Of a stretch of DNA of 64,000 bases, positions 1,081 to 14,760 are shown piece by piece. A program made the translations under genes and the position numbers. Origin of the DNA: Mobula hypostoma (Eukaryota). The notes beneath the pieces were generated by a model. The model was given only the letters and a program-made list of their open reading frames with translations, had not been told where the DNA came from and searched no databases. Position 1 is the first letter of the stretch; each line of letters begins with the position of its first letter. Location: the NCBI RefSeq assembly GCF_963921235.1, contig NC_086097.1, positions 63,180,001-63,244,000 of the forward strand, written 5' to 3'.

Positions 1081-1304
1081 TGTACTGTATAGCTACTGTA
1101 TAATATGGGACTACTTTATGTTGTAGGGACACGTCATTGCGTGCGCTATTAGGCACGTATTGAGCATGTGCTATTAGGCGCGTATTGATCTGTTACGTGT
1201 GTGTTCAGTTCGGTTTCAGTCAGTAAAGAACCCTGGTAACTTAGCTTCCATCTCCAGCGTTTTTATTTATAGCTTTGTTGTGTAACCCGGCCACATACAC
1301 AGCA
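1081..1304 (+). repeat. 5' LTR of Gypsy A
   Basis: TGTACTGTATAGCTACTG...CACATACACAGCA, 224 bp, aligns end to end with 14059-14281. Confidence 0.93.
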
Positions 1305-1306
1305 AA

Positions 1307-1318
1307 TCGGCAACGAGG
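1307..1318 (+). promoter_or_regulatory. Degenerate primer-binding site (tRNA-Ser(GCT)-like, consensus TGGCGACGAGG)
   Basis: TCGGCAACGAGG directly after the 5' LTR. Confidence 0.6.
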
Positions 1319-1669
1319 TTATTGAACCTACATCATATCGGAACGTCATGTTTTAATTGATAACGACACTCGGAAGAAGAGCACAAGGTATATGCCAAGG
1401 CAGAGTGAGGTCGCGAGTCCAAAAGGAAACGGAAGCACAGCCGGGGTCAGGAACGTCGGGAGACAAAGAGACAGTCGGAGCCGCAGCACGTCCAGGCGAG
1501 ACCACAGCCGGAGCTGACCCCCAGGGGCTGAGGGTCTGCCTGCCCCAGAAGGGAGATAAAAAGAACGACACACACATCTAGATGGAGTGCGCTCGTGGCG
1601 CTAGCAAGAAGGACAAGTGAGTCAAAAAGGAAAATAAGGGAAGAATGGGGCTTAATTAACATAACAAAG

Positions 1670-2362
1670 ATGGCGATGATCAGAACCATTACAGCATTTG
1701 ATAGTGGCATTGAAGACTGGGCAACTTACATTGAGAGAGTGGAGTTATATTGTGAGGCTAATGGTGTTAATGATGAAAAGAAAGCCAGCGTCTTACTCAG
1801 TATTATGGGAGCGAAAACATACAGCCTGCTACAGAGCTTGTTAACCCCTGAAAAGCTAGCTGACAAAACGTTCAGGCAAATAGTAGACACCCTCCAACAG
1901 TATTTAAACCCCAAACCACTGGTCGTTGTTGAAAGATTTAAATTCCATATTAAACGGAATCAGAGCAAAAATGAAAGCATTTCTGAATATTGTGCTGAAT
2001 TGCGCAAAATATCAGAACATTGTCAATTTGGAGCTGGTCTATCAGACGCATTGAGGGACAGGTTAGTGTGTGGCATGCACTGTGAAACCACACAGAAGCA
2101 GCTCCTGTGTGAAAAAGACCTTACGTTCGAGAAAGTGCTAATCATCTCAACGTCAACAGTCGCACAAGGTGCTTCCGAGATACAACAAAAATCTCTGGAA
2201 CATGCCACAAATAAAACGTCACTGCACAGAAATGAAGGAAAAAAATGCTACTGTTGTGGGAACAGATCACATGACCCTGATGGTTGTTGGTTTAAAGATA
2301 AGGAATGCCGAAACTGTGGCAAACAGGGCCACACTGGCAGAGTATGCAAAGCTGGTAAATAG
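1670..2362 (+). pseudogene. Gypsy A gag with CCHC zinc knuckles
   Basis: EDWATYIERVELY, LRDRLVCGM, CYCCGNRSHDPDGC, CRNCGKQGHTGRVC; TAG at 2360-2362 is in frame with the downstream protease, so probably a nonsense mutation. Confidence 0.9.
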
Positions 2363-2419
2363 CAGGGAAAAGGCAAAATACAGAGAAACAAGAAACCCCA
2401 GAAAGGAAAATACAACAAT

Positions 2420-2872
2420 GTGCACAAAATGAAAGAAAGCAATTCTGATGAAAATGACTCAGACAAAAGTAAATTGTCTTGTCTGCAACTTCACAGCGTG
2501 AGTGAGACAGATGATCAAAGAGTAATATGGATCACTCCACAAGTGGCAGGCGTGAGACTGAAAATGGAGTTGGACACAGGCTCAGCTTTAACAGTGATCG
2601 CTGTACACGACTACAAACGACTGTTTTCTCACATATCTCTGAAACGGACTAAGCTACTGCTAAAGACTTACACAGGACAGAAAGTGTGTCCCAAAGGTAA
2701 AATTAAAGTAACAGTGACCCACGGAGACAAAACACAGCTGCTGAACCTCTATGTACTGAAAAATGGAGGACCACCATTGTTGGGACGTGAATGGCTCAGG
2801 AAAATCCAGTTGGATTGGCACACCATCAAGGCACTAGATGTGTCAACAAAGGAGGACAGCTCAACGGGGAAG
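2420..2872 (+). pseudogene. Gypsy A aspartic protease
   Basis: MELDTGSALTVI active site and GPPLLGREWL motif. Confidence 0.9.
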
Positions 2873-3535
2873 ATATCCGCAGCTCTCCACTCACCCTTTG
2901 TCGACTATTACAATGACGAAGAGGAGCTAGACAGCATTGACGATGAGGACAAACGCAGTATCCGTGGATGTGACTCCGATGAAGTTACAGAGGATGCAAG
3001 GGAGATAGATATTGCTAATAAGTAGGATGATGAAGACTACCTGGCAGTAAAAGAGCAGATGTACCAGGAGAAGTTGACGTCTCTCAAAAGACAGCTACAG
3101 CAGTTACAGGAAGGCACTTTGCAGGAGTATCAGAAAAGAATGAAGAAACTAGGTCAACAATACAAGGAAAGAATATGAAATGCAGAGCTTTTTCTGCAAC
3201 TGGAGACAGAACAAGTTGAAAGGAATTACATTAAAGAGAAGAAAGCAGCAGTGAAGGAATTTGAAGATAAAAAGATTGAGTTAGAAGAAAAAGATGACTT
3301 AGAATGAGAGGCTAACAATGGAACTCACAGGAGATTCTATGGAGGTAAAGCCAATAATAACTAGGAAACTAAGGAGGAGACCTAATGACCCTGTTCCAAT
3401 TACAGACAAAAGATGAAAACCTGCACCTGCGCAGTTAAATTACTTGTTAGCAGATGAACAGATAATGGAAGATCTGTCAACTCTCAATAAGCTTAAATCT
3501 CCGAAAAGACCAGCATCTCCATCTTCTCCTGAACA
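2873..3535 (+). pseudogene. SUDS3: Processed partial copy of Sin3-HDAC corepressor subunit SDS3, captured in Gypsy A
   Basis: Translates to DYYNDEEELDS...[34 protein letters not shown]...[31 protein letters not shown]...[15 protein letters not shown]...[13 protein letters not shown]...[35 protein letters not shown], matching vertebrate SUDS3 as recalled; no introns; several stops and an internal deletion near 3285. Confidence 0.95.
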
Positions 3536-4002
3536 ATTTCCTTGGGAAAGATCCATGAAAATTGGTCACCCCTTAAAAGCTCTTGGACAAAATCAATTCC
3601 ATTCAAACAGAACAGCTTTCGCATAAGGTAAATCTTGAACCAGTCATTTCCTCCATTGAGAATCATACACTTAATCCTTTGCAGGAATGTTTCTTTTGCA
3701 TGTACGAATTTTGAATCCTCAGCCAATGTGTCTTGTTTTGCACAAAGAAGTTGGGAAACAGCATCAAAACAGAGACAAATTCTGGCAACAAATTGTAAGG
3801 TTTCTATAGTTGTATTTTCACACTTGTGCTGAATGTGCATCTGAAGGAATCCTCCCTCTTGAATCAGGTTTCGCAATCTTTTCTTGCACTGTGCACAACT
3901 GGGATTTTTCATACATAGAATCCTCCAAACAATTCAGAAACAGTGCATAGAGTTCAGTCTCAATTCCTTGACCAAGATTTTTTTTGAACTTCAGACAGAT
4001 AG
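3529..4002 (-). pseudogene. RNF213: Processed fragment of RNF213 (mysterin) E3 region, antisense cargo, part 1
   Basis: [45 protein letters not shown]...GIDFVQELL...WIFPKEIVQ, resembling recalled RNF213 TELYMLFINCLEDS, YLQEVARIRLCLD, NDWHRVYLVRKL, WVFPKDVV; frameshifted. Confidence 0.85.
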
Positions 4003-4185
4003 TGTTGTGTTCTTTATATTCATACATGGGTTACTAATAAAGAACCGTCTTTTCTGTCTCAAATAGAACTTTTATTTAACAACAACCACAATATTTTTAC
4101 AATACCATGTTTTTCAATCTTTCTTTCATCCCTGCGCATGCTCAGAACTCTCTCCAATCATGTTCTTACACGTCATATCATCACA
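4003..4185 (-). repeat. 3' LTR of Gypsy B
   Basis: TGTTGTGTTCTTTATATTC...CATATCATCACA, similar to 11983-12170; adjacent polypurine tract on the minus strand. Confidence 0.9.
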
Positions 4186-4243
4186 TCTTCCTTTCCTTAA
4201 AAAGAAAAACAATTAGCAACATTGACCAGAGCAAATGCATAAC

Positions 4244-7200
4244 TTAACATGTCTCTATCAGTCTCTCTGGGGATTTATGAACTCGAGTAGACCTTCTAAG
4301 TGATTCACACAGTTCTTGTGTTTCATTGTTATTTCCATGTTTTGTCTGGTCTGCATTAGTTAACTGAAACTCTGAAGCTGGCCCTTTCTTGAAGTCTTTG
4401 TGATTTCTCCTTAACACTGCTCCTTCTTCTGTTTGGACTATGTATAATCTGGATTGTACTTCTTCAAGTGCTGTAGCTTTCTGTGTCCATGTGATCATTT
4501 TGTCTTGTATCCTTACTTCATCTCCTTGGTGCAGTTCAGGTAATGGACGGGAACATCTGTCAAAGTATGTTTTCTGTTTTGTTTTGTGTTCATCTTTCCA
4601 TCTTTTCACTTGTTCACCTTCCTCTGTTCTCAGAAGGCTCTCATCTATTGGCAGATTGGATCTCAAACGACGTCCCATCAAGAGCTGAGCAGGTGAAAAT
4701 CCATATTCAAGTGGAGTACTGCGATAGACTAACAAAGCTTTATAAAAATCACCTCCACTATCTTTTGCTTTGTGCATCAGTTTCTTGCTAATTCCTACCA
4801 ACTTCTCAACTAATCCATTGGACTGAGGTAAAAATGGACTAGATGTTGTATGAACAAAGCCCCATCCATGAGCAAAATGTCTCATGCATTCACCATTGAA
4901 TTGTGGACCATTGTCTGTGAAAACTTCATCAGGTACCCCTTGTCTGGAAAAAAAACTGATTTCATGCATGTAATTACATTCTCTGCTGTTGTTCTGCTCA
5001 GACCACACACTTCAGGATACAAGAGTAGTAATCCCTTATTAATAAATAATATTTGTTGTCAATTACAAAAAGTTCAACGCCTACCTTCTGATAAGGTCTC
5101 TGAGGACTATGACGTGGATGCAATGGCTCCTTAGGGTTGCTAGGTTGGTATTTAAGGCATATTTGACAAGGAGACACCGATTCTGCAATTTCTTGATTCA
5201 TCCTGGGCCAAAACATCACTTCTCGTGCCCTTCTCTTACATTTTTCAATACCTAGGTGGCCTTCATGAATTTTCCCAAGCTGTTCTTTTTGGAGACTTTT
5301 CGGAATCACAATTCTGCTACCTTTGTACAATATCCCATCCACAACAGAAAGTTCTGATCTGTGGTTCCAATATTCTTGTACTTCTGAGGTACAGTCATGC
5401 TTATTATCTGCCCATCCATCCATCACCACTTGTATTACCTGACTGAGAATTTTGTTCTTCTCAAGATGCAACAGTTCCAACTTTTCGGGAGTAACAGATA
5501 CAGTTTCTATGACCATATCAATAAATACCTGAACATCAACAGCATCCCTGTGACTGTCTTTTGTTGTTGGATCCACAGCTCTGGAAAGTGTGTCAGCCAT
5601 GTACATGAATTTTCCAGGTGCGTATGACACATGCAACGTATATCTTAGTAATTTGATCATCATTTGCTGAATTCGCAAAGGACAGTCACTTAACGGTTTG
5701 TGAAACAATGCAATCAGAGGCTTGTGATCAGTTTCAACATCAATAGATTGACCTGACACAAACTGATGAAATCTCTCACAAGCAAACACAATGCTGAGCA
5801 ATTCTTTTTCAATTTGGGCATACCCTGTTTCTGGATCAGATAATGAATGAGATGCATATGCCACAGGTAGCCAATCCTGATCATGTTTTTGGAGTAATAC
5901 TGCCCCTAAGCCTGCTTGAGATGCATCACACGAGATTTTGATGGGTCTCTCAGCATCACAGAATTTCAACACAGATTCTTTAGTGAGTACTTTCTTGAAA
6001 TTTTGCCTTGCCTTCTCCTGTCCATGGTTCCAGCTCCATTCATTTCTCTTTTCTGTTAGCTGCCTCAATGGAGCGAGCTGTTCCGAGAGATCGGGTATAA
6101 ACTTTCCCATGTAGTTGGCCATTCCCATAAACCTCTGAACATCCTTTTCACATTGCAGTCTTGGCATGTTCTCAATAGCAGAAACCTTCAATGGATCAGG
6201 ACGCACACCCTCTTTGCTGATGATATCACCCACAAATGTAAGTTCAGTCACTCCTAGCTGACATTTGTCTTTATTCAACTTCAGGTTTGCCTTGCGTGTT
6301 GCCTCAAAGACTTGTCTGAGCCTGGCATTATGCTCTTGTTTAGATGATGCCCAAACAATAATCTCATCCATGGATGTATCTACGCCCTCAATGTGCTCAT
6401 ATAACATGTGAGTGGTTTATGGTACACTTCAGGAGCTGATGCAATTCCAAACGGAAGCCAAAGAAAACAGTATCTGGCAAAAGGAGTGTTAAAGGTACAC
6501 AACTTTGAACTCAGTTCATCTAAGTTGCTAGAATTCAGTGGATGCATCTAATTTACTAAAGCACTTTGCATTAGCAAACTGTGACATAATTTCTTCACGA
6601 GCAGGCAATTTGAAATGCTCTCGTTTAATGGCTCGATTCAAGTCTCTTGGATCTAAGCAAATCCTCAGTTTTCCATTTTTCTTATCAACTATGACAAGTG
6701 AATTGACCCATTCAGACGATTCATCAATTTTTTTTATAACTCCTAGCCATTCCGTTCTGTCAAGCTCTGTTTTCAGTTGATGACGTAATGCAAAAAGCAC
6801 TTTTCTACTTGGATGACTACAGTTGGCACTGTGCTATCAATTTTAATCATGTGCTCTCCTGGAAGACAACCAAGCCCTTTGAACAAGTCCTCAGACTTTT
6901 TCATCAAGTCACTGTATTCTGACTCTGTGTCACTGTCCAGGACCAAATCTCTTTTCACCAAATTCAGTCTCTCTCAGGCCGATAAACCCAGTATTGACTG
7001 TACATTCTTTGGCACCACCACAAATGAAAGCGTGTGCACAATAGTTTTGTGTGATACTTTTGCCACACATGTTCCTTTAACTGGAAAGTCTGCACCTGAA
7101 TACCCAGTCACTTTTATATTTGTATTATGTAACTTTGGTCTTGGCTTTAACGCATTAAACTCAGATTCTGCAAGAACATTTACTTGTGCTCCAGTATCAA

Positions 7201-7935
7201 GTTTAAACAGAATATTGTTTTGTTTCACTTGCAATGGAATAGTCCAGTCATTCTTACTTCGTTTTCACAAAGCACATCTATATAAAATTCCTCCAGTTCA
7301 TTTTCAAGTGCTGCATTTATTTGTTTTATTTTCTTTCTACTTCTGCAACAGCGTGAAAAATGATTACTCTTACTGCAGTCGTTGCACATTTTCCCATAAG
7401 CTAGACACTGTTTTGGCCGATGCTGCTCCCCACAATGATCACATAGCTTTTTTCCTCTCAGATGACGTCTTGCTCTCTGTCGGTTTTGTTGTTGTTTTAT
7501 TATTTTTTCTAATATGTTCACGCTTCCTCACAGCATCTACATTGCAGTTCTCAATGAAAAGTTCTTTAGCCTGTGATGTCACAGTTTCCAAAACTTTGCA
7601 GAGCATCAAAGCTTTTTCCATGTCTAAGTCTTGTTCTCTTAACAATCTTTCTCTCAGCGTATTATCCAGAATGCCACAAACAATTCTGTCTTTAATGAGA
7701 GAGTCTGTCAGTTCTCCAAACTCGCATGTTTTACTCTGGTGTCTCAACTCAGTAACATATGGATCAATAGTTTCACCAGCTCTCTGCATACATGTAAAAA
7801 ATCTATGCCGCTCGTATGTCACATTACGCTTCAGTGTACAAAATGCTTCAAGTTTGTCCATTATCGAATATAACTTTAAATTATATTCAAAAATAAAATG
7901 ATTATGTACCTCAATTGCATCGTCACCTATTATGT
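4244..7935 (-). pseudogene. Gypsy B gag (distal part), protease, RT, RNase H and integrase; frameshifted
   Basis: YERHRFF, LIKDRIVCGI, FKLDTGAQVNV, LRICLDPRDLN, CDASQAGLGAVL, YAQIEKELL, IHEGHLGIEKC, TDNGPQF, PQSNGLVE; PR-RT-RH-IN order. Confidence 0.92.
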
Positions 7936-10900
7936 AACATAGAAACATCGAAAATAGGTGCAGGTGTAGGCCATTCGGCCCTTCAAGCCTGCACCACCAT
8001 TCAGTATGATCATGGCTGAGCGATCTGTTTAGCCACAAGGGCCATATCTAACTCCCCCTTAAATATGGCCAATGAACTGGCCTCAACTATTTCCTGTGGC
8101 AGAGAATTCCACAGATTCACCACTCTCTGTGTGAAGAAGTTTTCCCTAATCTCGGTCCTAAAAGGCTTCCCCTTTATCCTCAAACTGTGACCCCTCGTTC
8201 TGGATTTCCCCAACATCGGGAACAATCTTCCTGCATCTAGCCTGCCCAATCCCTTTAGGATTTTATACGTTTCAATAAGATCCCCCCTCAATCTTCTAAA
8301 TTCCAACGAGTATAAGCCTAATTCATCCAGTCTTTCATCATATGAAAGTCCTGCTATCCCAGGAATCAATCTGGTGAACCTTCTTTGTACTCCCTCTATG
8401 GCAAGGATGTCTTTCCTCAGATTAGGGGACCAAACCTGCACACAATACTCCAGATGTGGTCTCACCAAGGCCTTGTACAACTGCAGTAGTTCCTCCCTGC
8501 TCCGGTACTCGAATCCTCTTGCTATAAATGCCAGCATACCATGCGCCTTTTTCACCGCCTGCTGTATCTGCATGCCCACTTTCAATGACTGGTGTATAAT
8601 GACACCCAGGTCTCGTTGCACCTCCCCTTTTCCTAATCGGCCACCATTCAGATAATAATCTGTTTTCCTGTTTTTGCCACCAAAGTGGATAACTTCACAT
8701 TTATCCACATTAAATTGTATCTGCCATGAATTTGCCCACTCACCTAACCTCTACAAGTCACCCTGCATCCTCTTAGCATCCTCCTCACAGCTAACACTGC
8801 CGCCCAGCTTTGTATCATCCACAAACTTGGAGATGCTGCATTTAATTCCCTCATCCAAGTCATTAATATATATTGTAAACAACTGGGGTCCCAGCACTGA
8901 GCCTTGCGGTACCCCACTAGTCACTGCCTGCCATTCTGAAAAGGTCCCGTTTATTCCCACTCTTTGGTTCCTGTCTGCCAACCAATTCTTTATCCACATC
9001 AATACCTTACCCCCAATACCGTGTGCTTTAAGTTTGCACACTAATCTCCTGTGTGGGACCTTGTCAAAAGCCTCTTGAAAATCCAAATATACCACATCAA
9101 CTGGTTCTCCCCTATCCACTCTGCTAGGTACATCCTCAAAAAATTCTGTGAGATTCGTCAGACATGATTTTCCTTTCACAAATCCATGCTGACTTTGTCC
9201 GATCATTTCACCGCTTTCCAAATGTGCTGTTATCACATCTTTGATAACTGACTCTAGCAGTTTCCCCACCACTGATGTTAGGCTAACCGGTCTATAATTC
9301 CCTGGTTTCTCTCTCCTTCCTTTTTAAAAAAGTGGGGTTACATTAGCCACCCTCCAATCCTCAGGAATTAGTCCAGAATCTAAAGAGTTTTAAAAAATTA
9401 TCAATAACGCATCCACTATTTCTTGGGCTACTTCCTTAAGCACTCTGGGATGCAGACCATCTGGCCCTGGGGATTTATCTGCCTTTAATCCCTTCAATTT
9501 ACCTAACACCACTTCCCTACTAACATGTATTTCCCTCAGTTCCTCCATCTTACTGGACCTTCTGTCCCCTACTATTTCCGGAAGATTATTTATGTCCTCC
9601 TTAGTGAAGACAGAACCAAAGTAATTATTCAATTGGTCTCATGTCCTTGCTCCCCATAATCAATTCACCTGTTTCTGTCTGTAGGGGACCTACATTTGCC
9701 TTAACCAATCTTTTTCTTTTCACATATCTATAAAAGCTATTACAGTCAGTTTTTATGTTCCCTGCCAGTTTTCTCTCATAATCTTTTTTCCCCTTCCTAA
9801 TTAAGACCTTTGCCCTCCTCTGCTGAACTCTGAATTTCTTCCAGTCCTCAAGTGAGCCACATTTTCTGGCTAATTTGTATGCTTCTTCTTTGGAATTGAT
9901 ACTATCCCTAATTTCTCTTGTCAGCCACGGGTGCACTACCTTCCTTGATTTATTCTTTTGCCAAACTGGGATGAACAATTGTTGTAGTTCATCCATGCGA
10001 TCTTTAAATGCTTGCCATTGCATATCCACCATCAACCCTTTAAGTGTCATTTGCCAGTCTATCTTAGCTAATTCACGTCTCATACCTTCAAAGTTACCCT
10101 TCTTTAAGTTCAGAACCTTTGTTTCTGAATTAACTATGTCACTCTCCATCTTAATGAAGAATTCCACCATATTATGGTCACTCTTACCCAAGGGGCCTCT
10201 CACGACAAGATCGCTAATTAACCCTTCCTCATTGATCAATATCCAGTCTAGAATAGCCTGCTCTCTAGTTGGTTCCTCTACATGTTGGTTCAAAAAACCA
10301 TCCCACATACATTCCAAGAAATCCTCCTCCTCAGCACCCTTATCAATTTGGTTCACCCAATCTACATGTAGATTGAAGTCACCCATTATAACTGCTGTTC
10401 CTTTATTGCACACATTACTAATTTCCTGTTTAATACCATCCCCAACCTCACTACTACTGTTAGGTGGCCTGTACACAACTCCCACCAGCGTTTTCTGCCC
10501 CTTAGTGTTATGCAGCTCTAACCTTATCGATTCCACATCCTCCCGGCTTATGTCCTTCCTTTCTATTGCGTTAATCTCCTCTCTAACCAGCAACACCACC
10601 CCACCTCCTTTTCTTTCATGTCTATCCCTCCTGAATATTGAATATCCCTGAATGTTGAGCTCCCATCCTTGGTCACCCTGGAGCCACGTCTCTGTGATCC
10701 CAACTATATCATATTCATTAATAACAATCTGCACTTTTAATTCATCCACCTTGTTACGAATGCTCCTTGCATTGACACACAAAGCCTTCAGGCGCGCTTT
10801 TACAACTCTCTTAGCCCTTATACAATTATGTTGAAAAGTGGCCCTTTTTGATGCTTGCCCTGGATTTGTCGGCCTGCCACTTTTACTTTTCACCTTACTA

Positions 10901-11718
10901 CTTTTTGCTTCTACCCTCATTTTACAACCCTCTGTCTCTCTGCACTGGTTCCCATCCCCCTTTGTGAACTAACCTCCTCTCGCCTAGCCTCTTTAATTTG
11001 ATTCCCACCCCCCAACCATTCTAGTTTAAAGTCACCTCAGTAGCTCTCGCTAACCTCCCTGCCAGGATATTGGTCCCCCTGCGATTCAAGTGTAACCCGT
11101 CCTTTTTGTACAGGTCACACCTGCGCCAAAAGAGATCCCAATGATCCAAAAACTTGAATCCCTGCCCCCTGCTCCAATCCCTCAGCCACACATTTATCCT
11201 CCCCCTCATTGCATTCCTACTCTCACTGTCGCATGGCACAGGCAGTAATCCCGAGATTACTACCTTTGCGGTCCTTTTTCTCAACTCCCTTCCTAGCTCC
11301 CTATATTCTCCTTTCAGGACCTCTTCCCTTTTCCTACCTATGTCATTGGTACCTATATGTACCACGACCTCTGGCTCCTCACCCTCCCACTTCAGGATAT
11401 CTTGGACACGTTCAGAAATATCCCGGACCCTGGCACCAGGGAGGCAAACTACCATCCGGGTCTCTGGACTGCGTCCACAGAATCGCCTATCTGACCCCCT
11501 TACTATTGAGTCCCCTATTACAACTGCCCTCCTCTTCCTTTCCCTACCCTTCTGAGCTACAGGGCCGGACTCTGTGCCGGAGGCACGGCCACTGTCGCTT
11601 CCCCCAGGTAAGCTGTCCCCCCCAACAGTACTCAAACAGGAGTACCTATTGTCAAGAGGCACAGCCACCGGGGTACTCTCTAGTACCTGACTCTTCCCCT
11701 TCTCCCTCCTACCCTCCT
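7936..11718 (-). mobile_element. CR1 LINE (5'-truncated within ORF1) inserted in Gypsy B gag
   Basis: ORF1 SGNH esterase (VIGDSIVRG, HIGTND, DGLHLN; 11021-11668); ORF2 APE endonuclease (9625-10920) and RT in frameshifted pieces to 8010; TTTCTATG-type tail; gag frame KAALLLH|IIGDDA is split by it. Confidence 0.93.
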
Positions 11719-11868
11719 GTGGAGTAGAAGTGCAGCTTTTGTTTTCTCTTGCTTTCGATCTGCATCAATCGCCAGTAAATACAATTCAAAATGTTGCTTA
11801 AATTTTCTCCAGTTCTCAGCTACATTCCCAGACAATTGAAGTGTCGATGGAGGCTGCAAACCTTCCAT
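11719..11868 (-). pseudogene. Gypsy B gag N-terminus
   Basis: MEGLQPPSTLQLSGNVAENWRKFKQHFELYLLA...KAALLLH. Confidence 0.85.
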
Positions 11869-11982
11869 TTGTAAAACTGTTAGCAAACACCAAAACAATT
11901 TGAACTCTTTTTTTCAGAAAGTTATTTCCGATTCTCCTGTGTTAGGAAACGTACTATTCTTCTAAATTGAATTCTGACACCA

Positions 11983-12170
11983 TGTTATGTTCTTTATATT
12001 CATACGTACCATGAGTTACTAATAAAGAACCATCTTCTCTGTCTCAAATAGAACTTTTATTTAACAACAACCACAACGGTTTTACAATACCATGTTTCTC
12101 GATCTTTCTATCATCCCTGCACATGCTCAGAACTCTCTCCAATCACGTTCTTATATGTCATATCACCACA
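11983..12170 (-). repeat. 5' LTR of Gypsy B
   Basis: Similar to 4003-4185; followed on the minus strand by PBS TGGTGTCAGAA. Confidence 0.9.
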
Positions 12171-12236
12171 GACAGCACTACAGGTAATCCTTAACATCAC
12201 AAAACTGTACTTTAACAGCAGTTTAAGAACAATGGA
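12171..12236 (-). pseudogene. RNF213: RNF213 antisense cargo, part 2 (continues across Gypsy B)
   Basis: SIVLKLLLKYSF then, after a 1-nt frameshift, DVKDYL; recalled RNF213 has SVILKLLLKYSFHDVKDYI immediately before TELYMLFINCLEDS. Confidence 0.8.
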
Positions 12237-12823
12237 GCCACAAGTGAGAGAGCGACAGCAGCCACACCCCAGTCAACAGCTTCGACAAGACAGCTAAACC
12301 AGGTGAGGGTAGCTGACGGGTCTCAAACCCTTGGTGAGATAGGGAGATGTCTATCCCAGCATGTGAAGACACACAATTCCGGCAGATTGAGCGAACGAGA
12401 CCAATGGAAGGTCCAACGGTCAAGAAAGCGGTTTCTGCAAGCGTCGTGGAACGTGTTGAGCACAGGACACAGAAGACGTCCTGGTCATCCACTGCACCTG
12501 GTCCCATCTCCAGCCATCTCAACTCTGACTTGCCACTGCATCCAGACAAGAATTGGGAAGAGAGAGTGAGACTGACGCTGCGCAACTCTCCCTCACATAA
12601 ATCCAAATCGTGCGCTAGTCTCGACACTATCAATGGTGTCGAGGTCTTCATCGATGATGACAATGGACGAACATGGAAGAACAATGGAATGAACAACAGG
12701 ATTTCGATCAACAGCTTCTTCAAACGGTGAAAGATTACTGGTAAAGACAGCAGATCACCAACCACTTCTTTTGAAAACCAAAGCTACGAAAAATGCATCA
12801 CACCTCTTGTGAAATATGACTAA
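12236..12823 (+). pseudogene. Unidentified captured coding fragment (C-terminal ~195 codons)
   Basis: One frame interrupted only by four TGA codons (12245, 12314, 12335, 12728), consistent with CGA>TGA decay; ends ...TTSFENQSYEKCITPLVKYD-TAA; no TE motif recognised. Confidence 0.55.
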
Positions 12824-12879
12824 TTTTGCTACAGCTTCACTTATTTCTTCTGTTACCACTGGTACATAACCATCATCTA

Positions 12880-12930
12880 GAGAAGTATGGCACAGTGGGC
12901 AAAGTCCCCCTCAGAGACTTGAGTTATAAA
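12880..12930 (+). pseudogene. Probable remnant C-terminus of Gypsy A integrase
   Basis: SPPQRLEL-stop resembles the RxRKPPxRLxL end of fish Gypsy integrases. Confidence 0.5.
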
Positions 12931-13028
12931 TGGGTCTTAGACCAAAAGTAAGAGAAAGGCTTGTTATAATTTGGTATTATTATGTTATTTTGTTATAATT
13001 TGATACTATTAAGTTACTAATGTTACAG

Positions 13029-13948
13029 TGTTACATACCTCATGGATATCTTGTGACTGTCTTATGACCATGATGTAATTGAGTAGCTGATGAGCATGAT
13101 GTAATGGTGTTTTGGAGGTCATCTGATGTAATGTTCCCACCGATGTGAGGTCACGTGATGACATGTCCACCACGGGTATAAAGGGGAAACCCCTGGTGAC
13201 GCAGTTAGTTTTCAGTTAGATCGTCAGTCAGGTACTCCGCTATGCTGCGTATTCGTCCCATGATGCAGTTTAGTTTTAAAACGGAGTTTTACTTTCTATT
13301 GTAAGGTACAGAAGTGTTGGGCTGGTAGTTTCACCAATAGCTGCCAGCTTTGTTGGTGTACCTTTTCAGTAGTATTGGAGAGTGAAGACATTACTAAGGT
13401 ACGGAACCGAAGGGAGTTGAGTAAAGCTGATATCGTTCGGTGGTATTGGAGAGGATCGACCATTATTGAATCTTTGTTCAAGAAAGAGTAATCTGCATGA
13501 GATAACCTCTGCTAAAGCAGAAAAGGTTGTGCAGTGTCTATTCTACAGAGGAAGAGGTCAGTTCCTTTAAACCGTTTTATTTCCGTCGTTGTGAATCCTG
13601 CGGACAAGGCAGGTTCCGGCTGGGATCAGCAGTAACGTCAAGTCTTCGAGGAATTCTTTACTTCAGGAAAGTCTCTCCTAATTGACTGTATAAATCTCTT
13701 GGACTTTCAAATTTACCATTCTAAGAACTGTTTGTTCCAATTTACCACTTTAATACTGTGTTCACATTTACCGCTTTAAGAACTAGTACTGAGTTTGGCA
13801 GTTTGTTAAATGGCCGCATAGCAGTTTACTTCCGGTTAAGGTTTTCGTTTGTTTATCTTTTTACTAATGTTGAGCAGAGTTTAGTAAATGTTTATTTGTT
13901 TATAAAACCTGGCTCATTTCTATATTCATTGTTGCCGGTCACGTGATA
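13029..13948 (+). mobile_element. Probable solo LTR of an unrelated family in the Gypsy A 3' region
   Basis: Starts TGTTAC, TATA-like GGGTATAAAG near 13175, ends ATAAAACC...CACGTGATA; no convincing TSD. Confidence 0.5.
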
Positions 13949-14040
13949 CTATGTAAATAAATGGTAGGCGTTTGTATGTTAGGGGTAAACATATTTGTTT
14001 ACCATAGTGTTCCAGTAAAAAAAACAGTTGATACACTATT

Positions 14041-14058
14041 AAAATAAAAGGGGAGGAG
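14041..14058 (+). promoter_or_regulatory. Polypurine tract of Gypsy A
   Basis: AAAATAAAAGGGGAGGAG immediately before the 3' LTR. Confidence 0.85.
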
Positions 14059-14281
14059 TGTATTGTATAGCTACTGTATAATATGGGACTATTTTATGTT
14101 GTAGGGACATGTCGTTGCATATGCTATTAGGCACGTACTGAGCATGCGCTATTAGGCACGTATTGATCTGTACGCGTGTGTTCAGTTTGGTTTCAGTCAG
14201 TAAAGAACCCTGTTAATATAGCTCCCATCTCCAGCATTTTTATTTATAGCTTTGTTGTGTAACCTGGTCACATACACAACA
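14059..14281 (+). repeat. 3' LTR of Gypsy A
   Basis: TGTATTGTATAGCTACTG...CACATACACAACA, 223 bp. Confidence 0.93.
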
Positions 14282-14760
14282 AGGCACAATTGAGAGCATC
14301 CTGACTGGCTACATCACTGCCCGGTATGAGAACTGTACTTCCCTCAATCACAGGATTCTGCAGAGAGTGGTGCAGACAGCCCAGCGCATCTGTAGATGTG
14401 AACTTCCCACTACTCAGGACATTTACAAAGACAGGTGTATAAAAAGGGCCCAAAGGATCATTGAAGACCCGAGCCACCCCAACCACAAATTGATCCAGCT
14501 GCTACCATCTGGGAAACAGTACCCGCAGCATAAAAGCCAGGGCCAACAGGCTCCGGGACAGCTTCTTCCACCAGGCCATCATACTGCTTAACTCAAGCTG
14601 ACACAACTGTATTTCTATGTTATATTGACTATCTGTTGTACATACCATTTATTATAAATTACTATAAATTGCACATTGCACATTTAGCTGGAGACGTAAC
14701 GTAAAGATTTTTACTCCTCATGTATGTGAAGGACGAGAATAATAAAGTCAATTCAATTCA
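14282..14760 (+). mobile_element. Rex1/Babar-like LINE 3' end (target of Gypsy A)
   Basis: GTIESILTG...VQTAQRICRCELP...HPNHKLIQLLPSG; AATAAA and (CAATT)n tail. Confidence 0.8.

Follow-up and report, generated by a model that had tools for sequence, protein, structure and literature searches.

A dispersed Ty3/Gypsy-type family of Mobula hypostoma carrying spliced SUDS3 and antisense RNF213 sequence

We analyzed a 64,000-nucleotide stretch of Mobula hypostoma contig NC_086097.1 (the window), in which a Ty3/Gypsy-type LTR element, interrupted by three younger repeats, occupies positions 1081-14281. The 5' LTR (1081-1304, + strand) and the 3' LTR (14059-14281, + strand) both start with TG and end with CA and are 91% identical to each other, and the flanking target-site duplication matches at 4/5 bases (GGGCA at 1076-1080, AGGCA at 14282-14286). 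The polypurine tract (PPT) AAAATAAAAGGGGAGGAG (14041-14058, + strand) lies directly before the LTR, as the same tract does in an autonomous relative, L047. An initial annotation had listed the LTRs, PPT and target duplication as retained, and these parts were confirmed. It had also listed the primer-binding site (PBS). A PBS-like stretch, CGGCAACGAGG, is found three bases past the LTR (1308-1320, + strand), with CGG for TGG. All six sibling copies with the 5' LTR end inside the fetched locus (L002, L006, L009, L011, L018 and L020) have TGGC or TGGT at this position, the sibling reading being TGGCGAC.AGG, and in L002 the stretch is displaced. Therefore, the PBS is real, but mutated in the window copy.

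Downstream, the gag open reading frame (ORF; 1670-2362, + strand) encodes two CX2CX4HX4C (CCHC) zinc knuckles and ends in an in-frame TAG; its sole Pfam match, DUF7083, falls below the curated cut-off. It is followed by an aspartic protease (2363-2855, + strand) with DTG at 2573-2581, and here too the Pfam match (gag-asp_proteas, E 4.4e-05) is below the curated cut-off. As first annotated, both genes are retained, judging from ORF translation and these matches. Between the protease and the 3' end, no RT, RNase H or integrase of the outer element was found in ORF translations, Pfam searches or sibling comparison, again in line with the annotation. The 3' internal sequence consists of 12907-13020 (+ strand), which is untranslated and aligns to positions 3205-3296 of L047, beyond the pol ORFs, and 13947-14040 (+ strand), defined by sibling matches and the L047 alignment. 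A probable integrase tail had been suspected near ~12900. In L047, the last long pol ORF ends 148 nt before this stretch, so it is not integrase coding sequence; the candidate was rejected, and the alignment assigns it to untranslated element sequence.

The first cargo segment is SUDS3 in sense orientation (2857-3532, + strand). An exon-by-exon alignment to the host gene (G000:C78; 12 exons, 59 kb) resolves it into 22 nt of 5'UTR, exons 1-9 and the very start of exon 10. Window 2851-3541 aligns to 10 consecutive host exons, and all 9 intervening introns, including one of the AT-AC type, are gone, as expected from the intronless SUDS3 proposed at first; protein comparison confirmed the identity. 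The segment is in frame with the protease. Its start codon, kept as ATG in most family copies, has changed to ATA in the window (2873-2875), and in-frame stops are present in the window copy and in 22 of 31 sibling copies. A 24-nt deletion common to copies is in frame. In the full-SUDS3 form, the captured stretch begins 22 nt before the ATG and ends within the 3'UTR.

Antisense RNF213 makes up the second cargo. Part 1 (3526-4002, - strand; E 1.6e-13 to human RNF213) joins host exons B and A directly at 3723: window 3526-3723 and 3723-3931 are 94% and 89% identical, respectively, to two host exons 703 nt apart (G000:C68). Part 2 (12168-12236, - strand) is contiguous in sibling copies, and part 3 (12677-12906, - strand) extends to the subfamily's deletion junction according to sibling copies and RNF213 matches. 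Both parts are also identified by a match of the insertion-free copy L010 to human RNF213 4125-4228 (E 3.9e-18). The cargo is a single antisense fragment with at least one intron (703 nt) removed, and both of its ends are internal to the RNF213 mRNA. The antisense RNF213 of the initial annotation was thereby recovered, and the comparison with host loci that it suggested found exon junctions spanned in both SUDS3 and RNF213. Its chain of three, or several, unrelated transcripts reduces to two parental genes. The "third coding fragment" was rejected as a separate transcript, being the continuation of antisense RNF213 plus a SINE-like insertion.

The largest of the younger repeats is a Gypsy element with its own LTRs and PR-RT-RH-IN (4003-12167, - strand), placed outside the family element by ORFs, Pfam and sibling absence. 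It is flanked by AGATAG/AGACAG and holds a CR1-like LINE at about 8010-11800. In 16 of 19 sibling loci it is absent, and matches pass from ~4002 directly to 12168-12169; this count leaves out L016, L017 and L018, where matches end before 4002 or have no adjoining match. The other two repeats are found in this copy alone. One is a SINE-like insertion of 440 bp (12237-12676), bounded by the 12-bp direct repeat AAGAACAATGGA, with a unit of ~424 nt and 4,642 first-look candidates in the genome. The other is a solo-LTR-like insertion (13021-13946) with target duplication TACTA and 4,202 first-look candidates, including match pairs 5.5 kb apart. Insertions had been annotated at 4003-12175 and 13029-13948; both are present within the corrected limits given here, but the SINE-like insertion had been overlooked. 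Without the three insertions, the element measures ~3.7 kb, of which cargo makes up ~1.45 kb, instead of ~4 kb and ~1.8 kb as estimated earlier.

Window 2391-2855 is 93.5% identical to L047 16-480. At base 2855 this match ends, and L047 continues with an RT/RNase H/integrase ORF of 858 aa whose Pfam matches exceed the cut-offs. Similarity between the window and L047 resumes at about 12902 and extends across the PPT as far as the start of the LTR, and the 3' LTR of L047 is 88% identical to that of the window over the 42 nt compared. In this comparison, the ends of SUDS3 fall exactly at the limits of the pol gap. The alignment thus shows that SUDS3 mRNA took the place of ~2.7 kb of pol, which was replaced, not interrupted. 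The earlier view that cargo replaced pol holds for SUDS3 but not for RNF213, which was inserted later into SUDS3 exon 10.

The element/SUDS3 5'UTR junction (2851-2856, + strand), which corrects the protease end placed earlier at ~2872, has three bases (GGG) perfectly in common and 8/10 surrounding bases alike. The window and each of the 22 sibling loci with the anchor motif have this junction in identical form (31 loci searched). Host and sibling alignments place a 7-nt microhomology, CTCCTGA, at the SUDS3/RNF213 junction (3526-3532). The 3' SUDS3/element junction has a short class, with 7 nt in common (GACAGAC), and a long class (5/12 loci), with perfect microhomology of 0-1 nt at most. The deletion junction at 12906/12907 has 1-2 bases in common. 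No poly(A) was found at any end of the SUDS3 or RNF213 segments, and neither segment has a target duplication of its own at either end. With the introns also gone, the idea of processed host mRNA inside a mobilisable Gypsy vector found support.

We then considered how widely these forms occur; the copy numbers are lower bounds, not counts. Query 2800-4000, with 40 of its 666 first-look candidates scored, gave at least 48 matches spread over many contigs at 82-100% identity, and the RNF213 query gave at least 152 (150 of 227 candidates scored). The C-terminal part of SUDS3, missing in the window copy, is contiguous in every one of the 150 places scored, of 384 candidates, giving at least 150 full-SUDS3 copies. 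Fifteen of 19 sibling loci cross the window's deletion junction at 12906. These results bear out the dispersed cargo-carrying family envisaged in the initial annotation. The RT region of L047, a candidate source of enzymes in trans, has at least 40 matches with 88-100% identity (40 scored of 1,734 candidates). The target duplications are CTATC (5/5) in L002 and CTAGG/CTATG in L006; together with that of the window, these independent, differing 5-bp duplications show that the cargo-bearing forms moved.

In locus L027, an RNF213 insert including the RING-coding part is followed by SUDS3, which restarts at the first base of exon 10, and the insert is flanked by a ~25 nt SUDS3 duplication. At no fewer than 14 further loci, match coordinates place antisense RNF213 700-860 nt upstream of the SUDS3 C-terminal match. 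L027, into which a transposon with inverted ends has inserted, is the single sequenced locus of this intermediate form; at the other loci the form is read from coordinate spacing. Judging from these arrangements, the window form is a deletion derivative of the intermediate, in which antisense RNF213 lies in SUDS3 exon 10. The window subfamily lost a third of SUDS3, yet was amplified.

Taken together, the element in the window is very probably an old copy, broken up by insertions, of a non-autonomous Ty3/Gypsy family that gained host cDNA stepwise, spread in trans and carries its cargo as a passenger. The backbone (LTRs, PBS, gag, protease, 3' untranslated end and PPT) would derive from an autonomous family abundant in the same genome, and host cDNA stands where RT-RNase H-integrase should be. 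In the first step, spliced SUDS3 mRNA would have displaced the ~2.7 kb of pol; this anatomy is observed, and the mechanism is proposed, most likely as two reverse-transcriptase template switches between the element RNA and a co-packaged mRNA. We infer such switching from the junction anatomy. In the second step, a ~1.2 kb spliced RNF213 mRNA fragment would have entered SUDS3 exon 10 in opposite orientation, with ~25 nt of SUDS3 duplicated on each side. In the third, a deletion of ~0.7 kb would have taken the RING-coding end of the RNF213 fragment and the remaining SUDS3, producing the window form. Each form would have been transcribed, packaged, reverse-transcribed and integrated with enzymes supplied in trans by autonomous relatives, and this continued mobilisation may explain why each exists as many dispersed copies.

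The same chimeras could have arisen at the DNA level, if free SUDS3 cDNA, and later RNF213 cDNA, was captured during break or deletion repair inside a genomic copy that became a transcribed master. We regard this as unlikely. The antisense RNF213 does interrupt SUDS3 with a ~25 nt flanking duplication and replaces no sequence, the 3-7 nt microhomologies also suit microhomology-mediated end joining, and the deletion junction shares only its 1-2 bases. Against this, SUDS3 is swapped precisely for pol between two element points, which is the signature described for template-switch retrocopies (PMC5131818), and the existence of two 3' junction classes points to recombination with RNA partners on more than one occasion. 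For template switching itself, the fit of microhomology to DNA end joining and the nearly absent microhomology of the long 3' class are points on the other side. The antisense insert is unlike a simple minus-strand switch; it requires either switching to an mRNA while the plus strand is being made or DNA-level capture.

Instead of a passenger, the cargo might be kept as useful: a Gag-PR-SDS3 fusion or free SDS3 could hinder Sin3/HDAC silencing, or LTR-read antisense RNF213 could feed small RNAs against an antiviral E3 ligase. The initial annotation had likewise suggested small RNAs, with SUDS3 and RNF213 as possible targets. The fusion to the protease frame, the ATG kept in most copies and the frame-preserving deletion are in line with this, as is a predicted sense transcript with ~0.85 kb that is 89-94% complementary to RNF213 mRNA. 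Open frames reach 501 aa among the SUDS3 C-terminal matches listed and are at least 500 aa long in 17 of the 150 protease matches listed, at least 4 of which adjoin RT matches and represent autonomous relatives, not the fusion. Copy-to-host distances by codon position are 0.053, 0.036 and 0.076, with an omega of 0.33 in the real frame versus 0.65 and 0.99 in shifted frames. They are structured by codon position and therefore leave room for possible constraint on the SUDS3 frame in an active master lineage, but synonymous change in the host gene alone can explain this shared branch. Copy-to-copy distances are flat (0.085, 0.069 and 0.080) and without a frame effect, omega being 0.57 in the real frame, not lower than in the shifted frames (0.49 and 0.73). 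The copies thus appear to decay evenly over codon positions after insertion, so no selection on the cargo was seen, and it behaves as a passenger. Considering also the in-frame stops and the amplification of a truncated subfamily, we find a useful cargo quite improbable.

That LINE-mediated processed pseudogenes of both genes landed by chance in a Gypsy already without pol is scarcely credible. CR1-like LINEs are active in the genome, one nested in the window, and a 2026 preprint links the numbers of retrocopies to non-LTR elements and, for cartilaginous fishes, places SUDS3 among the five leading retrocopy parents (10.64898/2026.06.26.734816), but the features tested already contradict the idea, namely cargo ends without poly(A) or target duplication, RNF213 ends internal to the mRNA, SUDS3 ends coinciding exactly with the pol gap, and one 5' junction in all 22 anchor-bearing siblings of the 31 loci searched. 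Like processed pseudogenes, the cargo consists of intronless host mRNA copies; unlike them, the copies are LTR-bounded with 5-bp target duplications.

The preferred reading, a passenger-carrying family mobilised in trans, resembles known systems. In the ETn/MusD pair of mouse, a coding-competent relative mobilises the non-autonomous LTR element in trans. This autonomous partner supplies the enzymes and has the LTRs and the two internal ends in common with the defective form, which carries foreign sequence in the middle and reaches high copy number. ETn/MusD belong to the retrovirus-like (ERV) class, and the ETn insert is not known to code for protein or to come from an identified donor, whereas the window family is Ty3/Gypsy, with both donors and their exons identified. 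In acutely transforming retroviruses (v-onc transduction), spliced host coding sequence also replaces viral genes, continues the reading frame of a viral ORF upstream of it and leaves a replication-defective, helper-dependent genome. In contrast, the window family is a germline retrotransposon without env, and no sign was seen of a phenotype of its passenger cargo or of the read-through transcript with which oncogene capture is proposed to start.

The proposed mechanism matches LTR-mediated retroposition, in which retrocopies form by microsimilarity-dependent template switching as described by Tan et al. (2016, Genome Res; PMC5131818). In that account, as here, an intronless host cDNA takes the place of some of the interior of an LTR retrotransposon, short similarity marks the junctions (median 6 bp there, 3-7 nt here), the mRNA copy is partial, with no poly(A) and no target duplication round the cargo, a chimera can draw on more than one parental gene, and it can retropose anew as a pseudo-LTR element. 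The cases it describes are single loci or few copies, whereas the cargo here occupies at least 150 places, gag and protease are kept with SUDS3 fused in frame to the latter, the second cargo, in antisense, lies within the first without replacing element sequence, and three successive forms were each amplified. This ray family, which appears to have lost its own copying enzymes, taken up two spliced host genes and still multiplied, would be a large vertebrate example of a known gene-copying route. Bs1 of maize, as cited in PMC5131818, is likewise a non-autonomous LTR retrotransposon with internal exon sequence from several host genes, in its case pieces of three cellular genes. It is a plant element of one to five copies according to the same source, whereas here a cartilaginous fish carries hundreds of candidates on a Ty3/Gypsy backbone.

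The Ty3/Gypsy copy at 1081-14281 has direct LTRs of about 224 nt (1081-1304 and 14059-14281) that are 91% identical, an LTR divergence of 9% within this copy. Read directly, the LTR termini are TG at the start and CA at the end. The flanking target-site duplication, GGGCA/AGGCA, matches at four of five positions (five of five and four of five in two other loci of the genome, L002 and L006, respectively), and a polypurine tract (14041-14058) adjoins the 3' LTR. The stretch following the LTR is CGGCAACGAGG, starting CGG. Since sibling copies read TGGCGAC.AGG at that place, starting TGG, the window copy would still possess a primer-binding-site-like stretch, though a mutated one. This stretch may resemble the 3' terminus of a serine tRNA. 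No tRNA was found within the window by ARAGORN, and complementarity of at least 8 nt between the post-LTR stretch and the LTR, considered for self-priming, was not found either. In L002 (3471-3510), a PBS-like stretch and then a repeat of the final 14 LTR bases stand between the end of the 3' LTR and the target duplication, an arrangement that looks like the product of aberrant strand transfer.

Translation revealed two CX2CX4HX4C knuckles in a gag ORF (1670-2362) and, after its in-frame TAG, a protease ORF with DTG at 2573-2581. The Pfam matches for both were below the curated cut-offs. The one in-frame TAG between the two ORFs (2360-2362) may be a mutation or a read-through arrangement. Reverse transcriptase (RT), RNase H and integrase were not found in the outer element of the window by translation, Pfam or BLAST against siblings.

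We then used the protease as a query against the genome. Among 13,705 first-look candidates, one top match lay within a 952-aa open frame; this locus, L047, matches window 2391-2855 at 93.5% at the DNA level. Beyond the protease it has an 858-aa ORF with RVT_1, RT_RNaseH_2, Integrase_H2C2 and rve in that order, all over the Pfam cut-offs, and its similarity to the window resumes at about 12902 and extends through the purine tract they have in common to the first bases of the LTR. Because RT, RNase H and integrase are missing from the outer element while present in order in L047, the outer element is a non-autonomous derivative of a Ty3/Gypsy LTR retrotransposon. The supposed integrase tail near 12900 in the initial annotation lies beyond the last long pol ORF of L047, at a distance of 148 nt, and is not integrase. 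The RT region of this autonomous relative had 1,734 first-look candidates, with matches at 88-92% identity, a level of divergence similar to that of the cargo copies. In a protein search with the protease, we found no further cargo fusions; the matches were ordinary Gypsy polyproteins of teleosts and a skate (45-72% identity) and one unnamed 303-residue protein at 87% identity.

Next to the protease, 2906-3295, translated with X for each of two stops, matched vertebrate SDS3, being 91% identical to devil-ray and sawfish SDS3 and matching the solved mouse/human SDS3 fragment with an E value of 4e-27. The host gene was located with a degenerate pattern for the eight residues missing from the element, which had a single genome match, on contig G000:C78. 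Here, host SUDS3 has 12 coding exons over 59 kb, with ten GT-AG introns and one AT-AC intron, and its translation equals the devil-ray protein P0004 exactly once the 8-residue retained-intron stretch GIDCVFLI of P0004 is dropped. The AT-AC intron, between coding exons 7 and 8 (G000:C78:8398853-8395737, in the L039/L040 region), starts with ATATCCTT and ends with AC, and its termini mark it as a minor-class (U12-type) intron. Window 2851-3541 aligns exon by exon to SUDS3 exons 1-10 at 78-100% identity. All nine introns are gone, the AT-AC intron as cleanly as the GT-AG ones, so that nine exon junctions are spanned in the window and 11 in full-length copies; the cargo is indeed a processed SUDS3 mRNA in sense orientation, as first proposed. 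It starts 22 nt upstream of the ATG, is in the same reading frame as the protease, and breaks about 23-30 nt into exon 10. An in-frame 24-nt deletion inside exon 6 is common to the window, the sibling copies and several devil-ray 'SDS3-like' gene models.

The second cargo lies on the other strand. The minus-strand ORF 3493-3933 matched human and mouse RNF213 (E 1.5e-13, residues approximately 4232-4353 of chain 8s24_A). We located host RNF213 exons by a protein search of the genome, which gave two partial matches on contig G000:C68 about 11 kb upstream of an RZ-finger match, and then fetched 2.5 kb. Window 3526-3723 is one host exon (94% identity) and 3723-3931 the preceding exon (89%). These exons stand 703 nt apart in the host genome; in the cargo they abut, spanning at least one exon-exon junction, which bears out the reading of this insert as an antisense processed mRNA. 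The initial annotation also listed a third, unknown coding fragment. In the insertion-free copy L010, the minus-strand translation beyond 3931 matched RNF213 residues 4125-4228 (E 3.9e-18); a second frame gave a weak RNF213 match at about 4070-4168 (E about 0.1), and the third gave nothing relevant. Judging from the L010 translation, this fragment is thus more RNF213, and the stretch beyond 3931 is the continuation of a single RNF213 cDNA, divided in the window by a nested Gypsy and a SINE-like repeat. A large protein search, covering proteins of up to 2,000 residues, found no longer relatives of the RNF213 ORF. A sub-threshold Pfam match to APOBEC3 on the antisense ORF was taken as chance. 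Further RZ-finger loci were noticed at G000:C68:41296529 and G000:C2:218463656. One is probably a second RNF213-like gene on G000:C68; the other sits in an 836-aa open frame, which we assume may be ZNFX1-like.

We fetched 19 sibling loci with a 1.2-kb query and compared them by BLAST. The family element consists of window 1081-4002, 12168-12236, 12677-13020 and 13947-14281, about 3.7 kb, and from this layout three stretches are private to the window copy. The first is a nested Gypsy element on the minus strand (about 4003-12167), which has RT/RNase H/integrase and a pair of LTRs of its own (91% identical). Its gag region is in turn interrupted by a minus-strand CR1-like LINE (8010-11800) carrying a GDSL/SGNH-esterase-type ORF1, an endonuclease and an RT. 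The second is a SINE-like repeat (12237-12676) standing between two copies of a 12-bp direct repeat; its unit measures about 424 nt and has no poly(A) end, and across the genome there are 4,642 first-look candidates, about 89-90% identical. The third is a solo-LTR-like repeat of about 918 nt (13021-13946), starting TG and flanked by the target duplication TACTA, with 4,202 first-look candidates. On contig C1, two of its matches share their orientation and are separated by 5.5 kb, suggesting that the repeat is the LTR of another element family, solo in the window. Nested insertions had been foreseen from the start; the SINE-like repeat had been overlooked.

The junctions show how each cargo sits in the element. 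L047 matches the window on either side of its pol ORF, so SUDS3 has replaced about 2.7 kb of pol (L047 481 to approximately 3190). RNF213, by comparison, replaces no element sequence; it sits inside SUDS3 exon 10, which it interrupts and of which about 25 nt are duplicated. The proposal that captured mRNAs replaced pol thus applies to SUDS3 and not to RNF213. At the 5' junction, GGG is common to element and host, with 8 of 10 surrounding bases alike; this junction does not vary between the window and the 22 sibling loci that have the anchor motif (31 searched, both subfamilies included). The 3' junctions of full-SUDS3 copies fall into two classes. In the short class (7 of 12 loci), the SUDS3 3'UTR joins the element at a common 7-nt GACAGAC, and in the long class (5 of 12) there is about 230 nt more 3'UTR, 15 nt less element and microhomology of 0-1 nt. 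A single deletion would not turn either class into the other, and there must have been at least one additional recombination. The SUDS3/RNF213 junction has 7 nt, CTCCTGA, common to both partners, which are the last seven bases of the host RNF213 exon. The left end of the insert (window 3526, position 1773 of the host RNF213 locus L046) is the last base of that exon (TCAGGAG, followed by gt), where spliced host-like contigs continue with another sequence. This agreement may be fortuitous, given the 7 nt of microhomology, or it may be a clue to the template RNA.

Intronless cargo could also arise as a LINE-mediated processed pseudogene, with its own poly(A) tail and target-site duplication. We inspected the SUDS3 and RNF213 ends for these marks and found neither poly(A) at the cargo junctions nor a target duplication around the cargo itself, which rules against this origin.

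We then asked how widespread the chimera is. The C-terminal 85 residues of SUDS3, missing from the window copy, were contiguous in all 150 places scored among 384 candidates, and copies lie on many contigs, in agreement with the predicted dispersed, cargo-carrying family. In 11 of 12 fetched loci, the context was LTR, gag, protease, full SUDS3, 3' end and LTR. The twelfth, L027, has the RNF213 stretch of the window up to 12906, followed by more antisense RNF213 including the RING motif; after a transposon insertion, SUDS3 resumes with the first base of exon 10 and continues to a short-type 3' junction. Since SUDS3 resumes there, RNF213 is an insertion in SUDS3, bordered on both sides by duplicated sequence of about 25 nt. 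The transposon of L027 (716-1410, about 695 nt) has ends that are inverted copies of a repeat scattered in the host SUDS3 introns, and is MITE-like. At least 14 further loci have an antisense RNF213 match 700-860 nt upstream of the SUDS3 C-terminal match, and these coordinates would fit the same intermediate form as L027. A spacing of about 720 nt was considered as a separate arrangement and rejected, as it equals L027 minus its transposon.

The form in the window lacks the RING part and the remainder of SUDS3. Its deletion junction is crossed in 15 of 19 sibling loci, so this form was amplified after the deletion. By these comparisons of copies, three successive forms appear each to have become multi-copy: full SUDS3, the intermediate with RNF213 inside exon 10, and the deletion derivative. 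Because identical junctions recur in dispersed copies on many contigs, while the target duplications vary between copies, the chimera itself underwent secondary retroposition.

To examine selection on the cargo, we calculated omega against the host coding sequence for 32 copies (the window and 31 loci), with shifted frames and codon positions as controls. The median copy-to-host omega was 0.33. Among copies, omega was 0.57 in the real frame versus 0.49 and 0.73 in the shifted frames, and p-distances at the three codon positions were 0.085, 0.069 and 0.080. This flat divergence, together with omega without a frame effect, indicates that inserted copies decay neutrally. Copy-to-host distances, by contrast, depended on codon position (0.053, 0.036 and 0.076). 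Subtracting half the copy-to-copy distance leaves about 0.011, 0.002 and 0.036 for the common branch, which mixes the host lineage with the master lineage of the element. After these controls, we rejected the value of 0.33 as constraint on inserted copies. A functional SDS3 paralogue or domesticated gene was likewise rejected: purifying selection among copies is contradicted by the flat divergence and the missing frame effect, and in-frame stops interrupt SUDS3 in 22 of 31 sibling copies as well as in the window copy.

We consider it very improbable that the cargo was more than a passenger, that is, that the family succeeded by carrying host defence-related sequence, with a Gag-PR-SDS3 fusion or free SDS3 blunting Sin3/HDAC silencing of retroelements and LTR-transcribed antisense RNF213 giving dsRNA or small RNAs directed at an antiviral E3 ligase of the interferon type. 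If it were so, the family would be a retrotransposon that had captured genes for counter-defence or, the other way round, a piRNA-type trap coupling element silencing to two host genes.

In sequencing data, the 20 listed runs, which come from 11 studies and cover several coded organisms, contained 13-47% of sampled words of 2400-4002; none was recorded as RNA. We examined contigs from four runs that we presumed to be RNA, though not recorded as such. Long contigs were colinear with 3525-3985/4001. At 3525 they switch to a different sequence, whose 30 letters agree in three runs and differ at one position in the fourth, and past 3985/4001 they continue with window sequence located beyond the nested Gypsy. 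These contigs fit spliced host RNF213 transcripts. Other contigs follow the window as far as 2855-2860 and then switch to RT sequence of the autonomous relative. Among the contigs listed for the four runs, none clearly bridged the SUDS3/RNF213 junction, except one low-depth contig with an 85-nt skip. Two contigs (X15 record 3 and X19 record 26) bridge the protease/SUDS3 junction, yet contain the 24 nt that are deleted in the examined genome copies; they may stem from a sister species with an older variant, or be chimeric assemblies.

The feature is real and its first reading mostly right, and it is an unusually prolific and well-resolved case of an already known kind of gene capture. Tan et al. 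2016 (PMC5131818) outline LTR-mediated retroposition by microsimilarity-dependent template switching, including multi-parent chimeras and secondary retroposition, and simulated the microhomology expected by chance when switch points are random. The ray family resembles the retrocopies outlined there in its intronless cargo, SUDS3 replacing element sequence, microsimilar junctions, cargo without poly(A) or target duplication, and secondary retroposition. It differs from them in its scale of amplification (maize Bs1 is cited there with one to five copies), in keeping gag-protease with SUDS3 fused in frame, in an antisense second cargo that interrupts the first without replacing element sequence, and in forming a traceable series of three amplified forms. 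A full-text search, judged by titles and abstract openings, found no description of a SUDS3-carrying LTR element. The family offers a fully dissected vertebrate LTR-retrotransposon gene capture, with donor genes, exon junctions (that of the minor-class AT-AC intron included), autonomous parent and junctions identified, and natural material on how antisense cDNA enters a retroelement.

A 2026 preprint (10.64898/2026.06.26.734816) lists SUDS3 among the top five retrocopy parents in cartilaginous fishes and discusses retrocopy numbers via non-LTR elements; MIPOL1, SDF2L1, SLU7 and ZNF276 are other leading parents that it names. The examined SUDS3 copies of the ray genome sit inside the Gypsy vector, so SUDS3 retrocopy counts stem from the multiplication of a single chimera and not from many separate retropositions of the gene, a concrete explanation for the rank given in that preprint. 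Six 'SDS3-like' models from two devil-ray species (P0005, P0007-P0010 and P0012) share the 8-residue deletion of the family and the changes P>T, S>G and R>Q. Additional upstream sequence is present in P0008 and P0009, and in P0008 it matches element-derived sequence of the window. By these shared changes, the six models look like annotated element copies, not host paralogues, and we flag them as probable annotation artefacts.
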